A stretch of 32,000 bases of DNA from an uncultured archaeon (lineage in GTDB: Archaea > Asgardarchaeota > Lokiarchaeia > Sigyniarchaeales > Promethearchaeaceae). How positions within the stretch are numbered: the first letter of the stretch is position 1; every line of letters starts with the position of its first letter. Positions 19,179-24,512 of the stretch are shown here, piece after piece. A program made the translations under genes and the position numbers. Where the stretch lies: the NCBI GenBank assembly GCA_964426185.1, contig CAYRPF010000014.1:1-32000 (forward strand), in the 5' to 3' direction. The notes beneath the pieces are model-generated. The model worked only from the letters and a program-made list of their open reading frames with translations, made no database searches and was not told the DNA's origin.

Positions 19179-22100
19179 TTGTTGCTGAAATTTCGAAAAA
19201 GAATTAGAATTGCTTTAATTTTTAGTGTCCTTCTTATTCCCACCTTTGTGCTTTTTAATGTTCTTCCAAATCAAAACGAATCGTCAGAAACGAATCCAAA
19301 TTTCAATCGAAATTCATTCTCCAAATTTAAAACTTCTGCAACGCCAAATAGAGTGTATGTGGATCCAAGAATCGAAGAATTAATGCATGATTCATCAACT
19401 TATAGTGATAGGCTTGATGTTCTTTTGTTTTTTAACTATAAAATTCATGATTATTCAGATCTCTCTCGATTGGGAACTATAAAAAATAAATATTCTTTGA
19501 TTAATGGATGTAAATTCGAAACGTCCCTTCAATATATAAACAATTTATGCTCACTTCCACATATTCAATCAATTTGGTGGGATACTCCAATTGTTCTTCC
19601 TAAATCTGAAAAAGAAGCTGATAAAATTCCACAAAATATCCGAGAACCCCTTCTTTATTCTAATGAAAATTCATTTGTAAATTTTACAGAGGAAATTCAT
19701 GCCCAACAATTATGGAAAGAGGATATCACCGGAAAAGGGATAGTTATTGCAATTTTAGATTCAGGAGTGGATATCTCCGGATCTGGTGGCGGAGATTTAG
19801 ATGATTTAGATGACAATTCGTCGACTTCAGATCCCAAGTTTTTAGGAGGAGTTTCCATGGTTCCTGATGAGCCTTTATACTATACAGATTTGACTGGAAG
19901 AGGTACATTTCATGCAGGAATTGCTTGTGGAACGGGCAGAATCAACTCAAATTATATAGGAGTGGCACCTGGAGCCAATTACTTAAATGTTAAGATTTTT
20001 GATTCTTTAGGCATTACATACTGGTCTTTTATGATATCTGGAATAGAATGGTCGATTGAGCATGGCGCGGATGTCATACTATTTGTATCAACCATTCCAG
20101 GATTTTATTTGGATCCTGTATCTCAAATGGTAAATGCTGCAGTTGATCGAGGTGTTATTGTAGTTGCGCCTGTTGGAGACGATGGGCCATCTTATATGAG
20201 CATCAATACACCTGCTCAAGCAAATCATGCACTCTCTGTTGGTGCTTATGATTCTACCACTCAAACTGTGTGGAGCCACTCCAGTCGTGGACCTTCCTAC
20301 GATTTTCATGTGGGACCGGATATCATCGCCCCTGGAGTAAATCTTATTGGTCCTCGTGCTCGATATTTAACTAACGAAAGTGTAAATTTAGCCATAAATT
20401 TCATCAGTCAATTATCACCTGAGATGTCTCTTGCACTTTCTTCTCAAATGAATGGCTTACAACAAGAGCTTTTTATGATTTCCGACTCGATTCCAAAATC
20501 GCAATTTGGAAATCCCCTTTCTCCCGAATCAAATTATACACGTGCTTCAGGAACGGGTGCTGCCGCTGCAGTCTGTGCTGGAGGGATTGCGTTATTACTT
20601 GAAGCTTTTCCATTGGCTACTCCGGTAATGATTCAGCAAGCACTTCAACGTGGAGCTCACACTATTTCTCAATCATCTGATATTAATATAGAAGGCAGTG
20701 GTTTAATCGATCTATGGGCTTCATTTCAATGGATGAGAGATATATTCGGAGAACAAACCCAAAAATTAAAGAGTTCCTCCGTTCCTCTTTTTTATTCAGG
20801 AATTGTAACTAATAAAGATCTTAATAATGTATCTCAATATAGCATTGATTTAAACTATTCTAACTTAGAAAATTATGATTCTGCGGTGATGGTGAGTTCT
20901 CAATTAATGAGCACAGCATTATTGGTTAGTGACCTTAACGAAAGTGATCCTTTAGATGTTCAGAACTTGGCATTCCACTTTCCCCTTAATCAATTTGGAA
21001 TTACTTATGAAATAAGTTCAAATTCCGATTCTCGTGAATTTCATTGGTTTTCCGAGTTTAATGTAGTGAAAGAATTGCATGAAATGGTGAATTCAATTGT
21101 ATATCCTGATGGATACCGGCGTTATGTTAGTGTGCTTGAATATGATGGGCTTTATGTGGCTTGTGAAATCGAATCGTGGGCTTATTTAGGAGAATTTAGT
21201 GATGAGATCTCCACATTCAATTTTACCAGTCCATTAACCCACGAGTCTTATTATACTTCTCTTAATTTTACTACACTTTCTTTGAATCATCGCTTGAATG
21301 CCTATAAAATATCTTTTCATTTTATTAATGATCGGTCTGATCACCAGAATTTAGACAATATTTCGCTGATATCTTTCATGAAGGCTGATTTGTTTGCTAA
21401 TGAAACAGGTATTTTAGGCTCTTTCAACTATAAAAAAGATGGAGGGATAAATTTTGGAGATGGTGGAGATAATGGAGATATATCTGATTTTATCCAAGAT
21501 GATGCTGTGCAGTTTGATCCATCAACGCAGATGATTTGGGTGGAAGATCTCGATAATTCATCTCTTGATACTGGAGATCCCAATTATAATGCCATGGGTT
21601 TTACTTCTTATTCTCACAATCTTTCTGCTTTTTCACTTGGAGATAGTTTTAACCTTTTGGTAAATATCTCCCAGCATCCTTTTTCGCCTACCACATGGAA
21701 TTTTTCTCTCTCGGAATCTGCCAATTATTCTTCCTTCAATAGTTCAAACTCTCATTGCGATCCGAGTTTTGCCCAGCAATATTTTCTTGACAATTTAACT
21801 TATGGAGGTACATTGGAATTTAATGGTGCTTTATCTGTTTCTGAAGCTTCCACATTGCAAGAATGTCGCAATAAAGTGCGTCAGAATGCATTTTTGCTTC
21901 AATCAAATACCACCAAATACAATATTACAGATCTTCTAATACTTTCCTCAAATTTTGCCCGAATCCATGAACCAGATGTTCCTTATAAATCTCAAGTTAA
22001 AATTCTTAATATGGGAACCAAGACTCCTCCCAACACTCAATTAGTTTTTTATGCCAATCGAACACTAAGTTCTGGGGAAGTAGAAATGTTTTCGCGAATC

Positions 22101-24512: not shown

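Follow-up and report, generated by a model that had tools for sequence, protein, structure and literature searches.

Two kinds of protein that are already known bear on the locus described here: the subtilase pseudoproteases CspA and CspC, and the accessory proteins of ATP-binding cassette (ABC) transporters that carry a GIFT (GldG/IFT52-type, GATase1-like) domain. In the C. difficile pseudoprotease CspC, the catalytic His is replaced by Thr170 and the nucleophilic Ser by Gly485, the prodomain is left uncleaved and stays tightly bound, and the residues of the pseudo-active site are structurally essential and strictly conserved within their clade (PMC7200643). We describe a gene of an uncultured Asgard archaeon (Promethearchaeaceae) in which a pseudo-subtilase is fused to a GIFT domain. 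The gene occupies 19179..24512 on the forward (+) strand of a 32,000-nucleotide stretch of contig CAYRPF010000014.1, referred to herein as the window, and encodes 1777 residues. We put the probability that its product, the pseudo-subtilase protein, is a non-catalytic accessory subunit of an ABC-2 transporter at about 0.7.

CspC and CspA resemble the pseudo-subtilase protein in combining a subtilase (S8) fold with substituted catalytic residues, the counterparts here being His to Arg241 and Ser to Gly460. They act as non-catalytic signalling or binding proteins, and we infer the same kind of role for the archaeal protein. The Csp proteins, however, occur in soluble form in the spores of Firmicutes, where they sense bile acids and regulate CspB, a paralogue that is active, whereas the 1777-residue archaeal protein has two transmembrane (TM) helices, is predicted to lie at the surface, is fused to a GIFT domain, is linked to ABC-2 genes and also lacks the oxyanion-hole Asn. 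Membership of the Csp families was rejected, as the NCBIfam models CspC_non_triad (59 bits versus 675) and CspBA (61 versus 1250) gave only local matches confined to residues 335–393.

Proteins of the GldG, ABC_transp_aux and DUF4350 type, exemplified by GldAFG of Bacteroidota and archaeal arCOG01314, likewise carry a GIFT/GATase1-like domain. As in the protein described here, the GldG type holds a big extracytoplasmic part between two TM helices, and its genes adjoin those of an ABC-2 permease and a DrrA/GldA-like ATPase. Proteins of the GldG and arCOG01314 kinds differ from it in lacking a subtilase domain and in being far shorter. Other ABC-2 and GIFT systems act on surface polymers or on unknown cargo; GldAFG belongs to the latter, and we know of no substrate established for it. 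Archaeal DUF4350 proteins have been predicted to be part of secretion or membrane-remodelling complexes, and arCOG01314 operons hold vWA and MoxR-type AAA+ genes, not ABC genes (PMC5898192).

Active enzymes of the subtilisin fold provide further points of comparison. The best matches to the propeptide and catalytic domain are Tk-SP and Tk-subtilisin of Thermococcus kodakarensis (PDB 3afg and 9ues; E ~1e-28 by sequence, 7.7e-26 by Foldseek), which are secreted, active and autoprocessing, and whose solved forms are engineered Ser-to-Ala mutants. Eukaryotic site-1 protease (MBTPS1/S1P/SKI-1) has the same order of parts, with one C-terminal TM helix and a short cytosolic tail; unlike the pseudo-subtilase protein it is active, has an intact triad, autoprocesses and has no ABC partner. 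In sedolisins (MEROPS S53), which have a subtilisin fold, the oxyanion hole holds Asp where subtilisins have Asn, and a functional residue follows the base position by one helical turn. Sedolisins keep a Ser nucleophile and a Glu base, where the pseudo-subtilase has Gly and Arg; of these three residues only the oxyanion Asp is shared, and a sedolisin assignment was rejected.

An S8 domain missing three active-site residues

The gene starts with TTG, which is preceded by a GGAGGG ribosome-binding site and lies 2 nt past the point where the upstream gene stops. Its 5.3-kb open reading frame (ORF) contains no stop, as an initial annotation of this DNA had stated, and is 1777 codons long. G+C content in the window is low (~0.32–0.39). 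Residues 185–494 (19731..20660, +) match Pfam Peptidase_S8 (PF00082) over profile positions 1–274 of 288 (E = 3.7e-34; 118.8 bits against a cut-off of 21.8), and Pfam, alignments, Foldseek and family comparison all place an S8 fold here. Residue equivalences were taken from HMMER alignments to subtilisin BPN' and Thermococcus Tk-SP, and are given in BPN' numbering. The catalytic Asp is retained, D194 (GAT, 19758; equivalent to D32) lying within ILDSG. The catalytic His64 is replaced by R241 (AGA, 19899) within GRGTFH, the oxyanion-hole Asn155 by D334 (GAC, 20178) within GDDG, and the nucleophile Ser221 by G460 (GGT, 20556) within SGTGAA; H245 (CAT, 19911) stands at the position of V68. On re-reading, all of these residues and codon positions proved exactly as first annotated, and alignment to the S8 profile and to subtilisin bore out the three losses. 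On contig C10 the same genome encodes a 1265-aa S8 paralogue of canonical type, in which all four residues are present, so the pattern of substitutions is specific to the pseudo-subtilase gene. It also holds two more giant S8 ORFs of 1651 and 1673 aa (C3:38002-38856, L007, and C4:53850-55130, L008), which keep the GHGT motif and have Asp and Ser motifs that are atypical or unrecognised (GTSAS; no GTSxA found); these may be further non-canonical subtilases.

The S8 scaffold had been described as intact, and the predicted structure agrees. An AlphaFold2 model of residues 30–570 (mean predicted local distance difference test score, pLDDT, of 75) superposes on subtilisins with TM-scores of 0.86–0.91, normalised by target, at a root-mean-square deviation of 2.3–3.5 Å, and on this superposition the scaffold is taken to be intact. 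Ahead of the S8 domain, residues ~60–140 (19356..19598, +) are modelled at pLDDT 83–93 as an I9-like propeptide with beta-alpha-beta-beta-alpha-beta order. The best Foldseek matches of propeptide and S8 domain together are unprocessed pro-forms, 3afg (ProN-Tk-SP) and 3whi (pro-subtilisin E). Both fold and propeptide are intact in the model. A helical hairpin is inserted ahead of the SGTG motif. Between the Asp motif and the former His motif lies a nearly invariant acidic insertion (GGDLDDFDDN... in the family, GGDLDDLDDN in the protein of the window; aa 202–218; 19782–19830, +), which belongs to the part of the protein where conservation is highest. It resembles the Ca2+-binding insertions of Tk-SP and Tk-subtilisin, and may be a Ca2+-binding loop like those of the Thermococcus subtilases.

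Relatives, history and selection

A search with the S8 region returned ~39 relatives of full architecture (1500–1810 aa; 41–77% identity in the S8 domain) from metagenome-assembled genomes (MAGs) of Lokiarchaeota/Promethearchaeota and Hodarchaeales, and the next tier comprised Asgard subtilases with normal GHGTH, GN.G and GTSMA motifs. Asp194 is kept in 39/39 of these relatives, and the substitutions are shared by most of them (R241 in 33/39, D334 in 33/39, G460 in 34/39), as is H245 (37/39). We then considered 62 distinct family members from Loki-, Hel-, Ran- and Hodarchaeal MAGs. None of the 62 has the full Asp-His-Asn-Ser set, which disposes of the possibility, raised with the first description, that the close orthologues might all be intact; a single member (1/62) keeps Asp-His-Ser. 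Asn155 has become Asp in 55/62, the Ser is absent from 56/62, where its position holds Gly, Ala, Thr, Phe or Arg, position 64 is Arg in 36/62 and Glu in one, and a His at +4 from position 64 (His245) occurs in 43/62. The distant members (1400–1480 aa, from other families) have the oxyanion Asp and no Ser, many of them with His64, and their clusters include proteins named Helarchaeota, Ranarchaeia and Hodarchaeales.

The stretch that defines the family is the stalk region (aa 545–1340), which was found in only 77 clusters among 1.84 billion representatives, and in 112 of 400 genomes of the phylum, belonging to 36 of 85 genera. The taxonomic range given here is based on this stalk search of 400 phylum genomes together with cluster names; a single-peptide-pattern search of genome contigs recovered 7 loci, all of Loki type. 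In databases the members go by the names 'S8 family serine peptidase', 'subtilisin family serine protease', 'putative Subtilisin', 'DUF4350 domain-containing protein' and 'hypothetical protein'. One further protein, P0056, is an active S8 with a weak GIFT match, encoded on a 5.4-kb contig without informative neighbours.

In a maximum-likelihood tree of the S8 domain, the 62 members lie on one side of a branch (SH-aLRT 100) from 34 active outgroup sequences, and the minimum numbers of state changes are 2 for Asp, 3 for His, 4 for Asn and 6 for Ser. We read this history as a change of Asn155 to Asp at the base of the family, followed by decay of the triad in parallel lineages. After the early Asn change, Ser would have given way to G/A/T/F/R and His to R/S/T/Q/E in different lineages, and the Loki clade would then have fixed R241/H245/D334/G460; His to Arg with a new His at +4 is a marker of that clade. 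Since the replacement of Ser and His was repeated and varied, it looks like relaxation after catalysis became dispensable. The initial annotation had proposed targeted losses in a maintained pseudoenzyme rather than decay. The loss of the catalytic residues stands, as does the maintained pseudoenzyme, with no full set among the 62 members and ORFs intact at 1400–1800 aa, but 'targeted' is too strong a word for replacements of Ser and His so varied and so often repeated. The protein of one distant locus (L015, 3845-8269, −) and that of cluster P0135 have Asp, His and Ser, with a degenerate STSAAAA motif; by their residues this form may be transitional and possibly weakly active.

Among 35 full-length orthologues, blocks of the S8 domain show 0.57–0.69 identity to the query versus 0.2–0.4 in the rest of the ectodomain. 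Between the window and a locus of the same genus, L001, the ratio of nonsynonymous to synonymous substitution rates (dN/dS) is 0.085 in the S8 domain, 0.21 in the stalk and 0.14 in the GIFT region, at a dS that is saturated (1.2–3.5). Because of this saturation, a closer pair, L003 versus L020, was added as a control; at an unsaturated dS of 0.52, its S8 dN/dS is 0.14. The low S8 dN/dS together with the highest conservation in the ectodomain indicates that the dead domain is under strong purifying selection, in line with what had been supposed. Residues 1690–1777, comprising the last TM residues and the cytoplasmic tail, are 85% identical to the L001 orthologue, with the lowest dN (0.097) of the segments compared and a dN/dS of 0.027, a ratio that rests on a saturated dS of 3.5. 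The tail also carries motifs conserved across the 35 orthologues. On the residues compared, then, the catalytic losses are ancient, family-wide and kept under purifying selection across Asgard archaea.

GIFT domain, topology and the ABC-2 operon

The decisive context, which goes beyond the initial annotation, is the GIFT domain and the ABC-2 transporter operon. The GIFT domain is assigned to 22749..23801 (+), with Pfam matches over aa 1337–1541: DUF4350 (39.9 bits, cut-off 30.4) and IFT52_GIFT (30.1 bits, cut-off 27.2) both score above their thresholds. Compared with the PDB, the family profile matched the IFT52 structure 5fmr at E = 4.6e-12 and WBP1/OST48 at E = 0.003. IFT52_GIFT is matched by 35/35 orthologues, and the domain is also present in distant members. 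A conserved RGRxxFDxxH strand at aa 1191–1199, followed by a poorly conserved insert, is probably the first strand of the domain; residues 1192–1340 fell below pLDDT 50 in a model whose segment boundary split the GIFT domain.

A hydropathy scan identified an N-terminal TM or signal-anchor helix (aa 11–29; 19209..19265, +) with KFRKRIR ahead of it, and a C-terminal TM helix (aa 1679–1698; 24213..24272, +) followed by NQQKNKTR. As basic residues thus lie on the cytoplasmic side of both helices, the predicted topology is N-in/C-in, with ~1650 aa exposed between the helices and a 79-residue cytoplasmic tail (24273..24509, +) that is, by its dN and by its motifs across the 35 orthologues, the most constrained stretch. 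N-x-S/T sequons are enriched (34 observed, 21 ± 4 expected), 20 of 36 sequons fall in the stalk, and a bitopic surface glycoprotein is the best explanation of these features. The stalk itself (aa 545–1190; 20811..22748, +) is a beta-sandwich array, confidently modelled by AlphaFold2 as mostly beta. A stalk profile (aa 545–1340) gave no match at E ≤ 1 against PDB sequences, and Foldseek returned generic arrays only (alpha-2-macroglobulin, integrin legs, transglutaminase barrels) at TM-scores of 0.1–0.2, so no specific fold family can be assigned to it. N- and C-terminal TM helices around a large external part, a GIFT domain, and adjacent ABC-2 permease and ATPase genes together make up the GldG-type layout, which, as predicted from the sequence, the pseudo-subtilase protein matches in both its GIFT domain and its two-TM topology.

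The pseudo-subtilase gene is the fifth of a same-strand array whose junctions in the window measure 2–37 nt. The first gene encodes ABC ATPase 1 (13708..14781, +; 357 aa; Pfam ABC_tran, E = 3.6e-26), which is DrrA/GldA-like in NCBIfam at scores below the cut-offs. It is followed by ABC-2 permease 1 (14788..15975, +; 395 aa; ABC2_membrane_3, E = 1e-19), a conserved neighbour, and ABC-2 permease 2 (15978..17198, +; ABC2_membrane_3, E = 1.8e-15 on the longer frame 15882–17198). The likely start of permease 2 is the ATG at 15978, 2 nt past the stop of permease 1; the orthologue in L001 has 408 aa. ABC ATPase 2 (17236..19176, +; 646 aa) has its ABC_tran match at residues 267–410 (E = 1e-29), and in both ATPases the Walker A, signature and Walker B motifs are intact. 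ATPase 2 begins with a cytoplasmic extension of ~250 aa (17236–17985) that is conserved across families of the phylum, BLASTP alignments starting at residues 3–14 in most loci (56 in L017). For the extension, searches gave no Pfam match, no TrmB match and nothing among PDB sequences at E ≤ 0.1, a lone hit being at the chance level of E 0.77. We regard it as a candidate partner of the pseudo-subtilase tail.

Directly downstream, 10–16 nt past the pseudo-subtilase stop, lies a gene for a microprotein of ~74 aa with two TM segments (24529..24753, +); the ORF opens at 24523, and the ATG at 24529 is better spaced from a GAGG site. A homologue or look-alike occurs directly downstream in five Loki-clade loci (L001, L003/L020, L005 and L016), the look-alikes sharing two hydrophobic segments, the same position and a C-terminal G-x-x-G-x-x-[FWY]-x-[KR]. 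The microprotein is probably the sixth subunit of the module. ATPase 2, one or both permeases, ATPase 1 and the pseudo-S8 gene recur together in L001, L003, L005, L012–14 and L016–20, while all other flanks differ. The operon is kept in 10 of 12 distant loci as well as in L001, and an ABC ATPase 1 homologue stands beside the pseudo-S8 gene in 10/12. A closed genome of 6.0 Mb (G137) likewise carries a divergent copy together with the full operon. Linkage to ABC-2 genes is thus conserved across the phylum.

Other neighbours lie outside this array. Downstream in the window, 24854-26029 (+) encodes a 391-residue protein that starts with a zinc ribbon, contains a long coiled-coil part, weakly matches an archaea-specific SMC-related model and is conserved at this place only in the same-genus locus L001. 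An Asgard ESCRT (endosomal sorting complex required for transport) cluster follows at 27137-30096, where an EAP30/Vps36-like gene (27137-27862) converges with further genes that, by the syntenic locus L001, are ESCRT-II (Vps25-like) and Vps4; within the part of the cluster that was inspected, a Snf7-type gene was not observed. In the distant locus L005, the pseudo-subtilase and microprotein genes are followed by one for a 1277-residue protein without a Pfam match (14999-18832, +).

A proposed accessory subunit and the alternatives to it

We propose that the ectodomain protein, which runs from the propeptide through the dead subtilisin fold and the beta-sandwich stalk to the GIFT domain, would serve as the GldG-type accessory subunit of a heteromeric ABC-2 transporter made up of the two ATPases, the two permeases and the 2-TM microprotein. 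As there is no nucleophile, the propeptide could not be cut off and, like that of C. difficile CspC, should remain covalently joined to the protein. The pseudo-active cleft might then bind or scaffold a partner, which could be the linker of the protein's own propeptide or a peptide or protein ligand from outside. The constrained cytoplasmic tail would connect the ectodomain with the ATPases, perhaps by way of the N-terminal extension on ATPase 2, and ATP hydrolysis would in this way be linked to binding or release of a ligand at the surface. By analogy with related systems, the substrate handled is most likely a surface glycan, lipid or peptide.

Several observations weigh against this proposal. 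The GldG equivalog TIGR03521 gave no match at E ≤ 0.001, and Pfam ABC_transp_aux scored 22.9 bits, below its cut-off of 34.7, for the window's protein; at E ≤ 0.01, ABC_transp_aux is matched by 34/35 orthologues. Two of the 12 distant loci, L011 and L015, are without ABC genes within 16 kb. The linker between propeptide and S8 domain is modelled at pLDDT <50. In the P0135 cluster, which includes a Helarchaeota MAG protein, Asp-His-Ser is kept and only Asn155 has changed to Asp; judged by these residues the subfamily could retain weak activity, and the ancestor may not have been fully dead.

If the protein were still an enzyme, it would have to work by non-canonical chemistry, either as a sedolisin-like acid peptidase or with Ser457 or Thr459 as a nucleophile paired with His245. 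The Asp at the Asn155 position is near-universal, His245 recurs at +4 in 43/62 members, the pseudo-active-site residues are strongly conserved in the Loki clade, and a few members keep Ser221, one of them with Asp-His-Ser. Set against this, the nucleophile position is G/A/T/F/R in 56/62, position 64 is Arg in 36 and the sedolisin base Glu in one, Ser457 is variable beyond the Loki clade, and no member that keeps His64 has His245. Nor, judging by conservation, does the neighbourhood of the site offer a replacement triad, as no Ser, Cys or His column there is conserved family-wide. At least 6 changes of state at the Ser position fit relaxed constraint on catalysis, and we consider an active enzyme highly unlikely. 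The idea that the losses reflect faulty sequencing or assembly, or a gene lately inactivated and turning into a pseudogene, has a negligible chance of being correct: the source is a MAG-type assembly of 155 contigs, but three independent codons have changed, the same residues occur in dozens of independent assemblies, there is no stop in 5.3 kb and dN/dS is far below 1. The comparison of orthologues has already refuted it. It is also very doubtful that the protein regulates or anchors an active subtilase, in the manner of CspC and CspA towards CspB, or that it is an inhibitor or chaperone by virtue of its propeptide, with the ABC-2 genes as mere neighbours. Known subtilase pseudoproteases do regulate active paralogues (PMC7200643, PMC12880746), and the genome encodes canonical S8 proteases; however, neither the window nor any of the 13 related loci inspected holds an active S8 gene, it is the ABC-2 genes that stay adjacent across families of the phylum where all other flanks differ, and the GIFT domain and two-TM topology are those of ABC accessory proteins.

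The shared order of propeptide, S8 domain, extra domains, GATase-like domain, TM helix and short tail could suggest a relative or precursor of eukaryotic site-1 protease, that is, a eukaryotic signature protein inactivated in Asgard archaea. Pfam MBTPS1_4th was indeed matched by 10/35 orthologues (best E = 3.1e-6), and weakly by the query and distant members, and the MBTPS1 cluster ranked third in a protein-language-model search (score 0.87), which is a lead only. The window protein and two distant members, however, reach only 15.7–20.6 bits with MBTPS1_4th, below its 27-bit cut-off, and MBTPS1_3rd was not matched. With these domains below cut-off or unmatched and no intact triad, membership of the S1P family was rejected. 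The GIFT family profile favours IFT52 (E = 4.6e-12) over S1P (E = 0.35), GIFT/DUF4350 domains are widespread in prokaryotes (PMC5898192), and the S8 domain found its closest relatives in Tk-SP, subtilisins and mycosin-like proteins. The best 60 of 92 PDB sequence matches do not include S1P. By Foldseek it comes 26th, where bacterial subtilisins do at least as well, and the top 50 fold matches to the stalk lack it too; neither family search returned a eukaryotic protein. The resemblance is one of architecture only, no specific sequence or fold affinity having been found beyond the two shared superfamilies, and we think such a relationship unlikely. A purely structural role, in which the protein is an envelope or adhesin component of an Asgard surface that lacks an S-layer and the dead S8 domain is a stable fold with no coupling to transport, would suit the huge sequon-rich ectodomain with its beta-sandwich stalk, and the fold matches include adhesion and S-layer-type arrays. 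It leaves the strict operon linkage, the constrained tail and the best-conserved S8 domain unexplained, and by itself strikes us as very improbable; a structural role at the surface is nonetheless compatible with the accessory-subunit explanation.

A more far-reaching version of the accessory-subunit explanation would make this an Asgard-wide surface machine, in which the ABC-2 transporter drives, or is gated by, the pseudo-subtilase/GIFT ectodomain through its tail. In that version S8 domain, GIFT domain, TM helix and tail would represent the prokaryotic stock from which eukaryotic S1P arose, and the GIFT domains of IFT52 and OST48 would be of Asgard ancestry. We offer this as a speculation that is unlikely to hold in full.

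In the literature searched, we found no pseudo-subtilase and GIFT fusion described as a phylum-wide Asgard family, nor its stepwise catalytic loss or the six-gene module. Searches combining Asgard with IFT52 or with site-1 protease returned nothing, and those on Asgard, subtilisin and pseudoenzyme, together with the MEROPS 2017 survey of Asgard peptidases, returned nothing specific. The family matters in several respects. Where metabolic reconstructions tally extracellular peptidases in Asgard MAGs, for instance in support of protein-degrading lifestyles, the tally would include a protein that is almost certainly unable to cut peptides. As a series in pseudoenzyme evolution, it presents what appears to be an early oxyanion change and then repeated, independent loss of Ser, His and Asp in turn, while the fold stays the most constrained part of a 1400–1800-residue protein. 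A conserved six-gene module of two ATPases, two ABC-2 permeases, a pseudo-subtilase/GIFT protein and a microprotein is present in the closest archaeal relatives of eukaryotes, whose cell surface is poorly understood, and its GIFT domain has its other known occurrences in IFT52, OST48, S1P and GldG. The module could be tested in cultured Loki-type strains.

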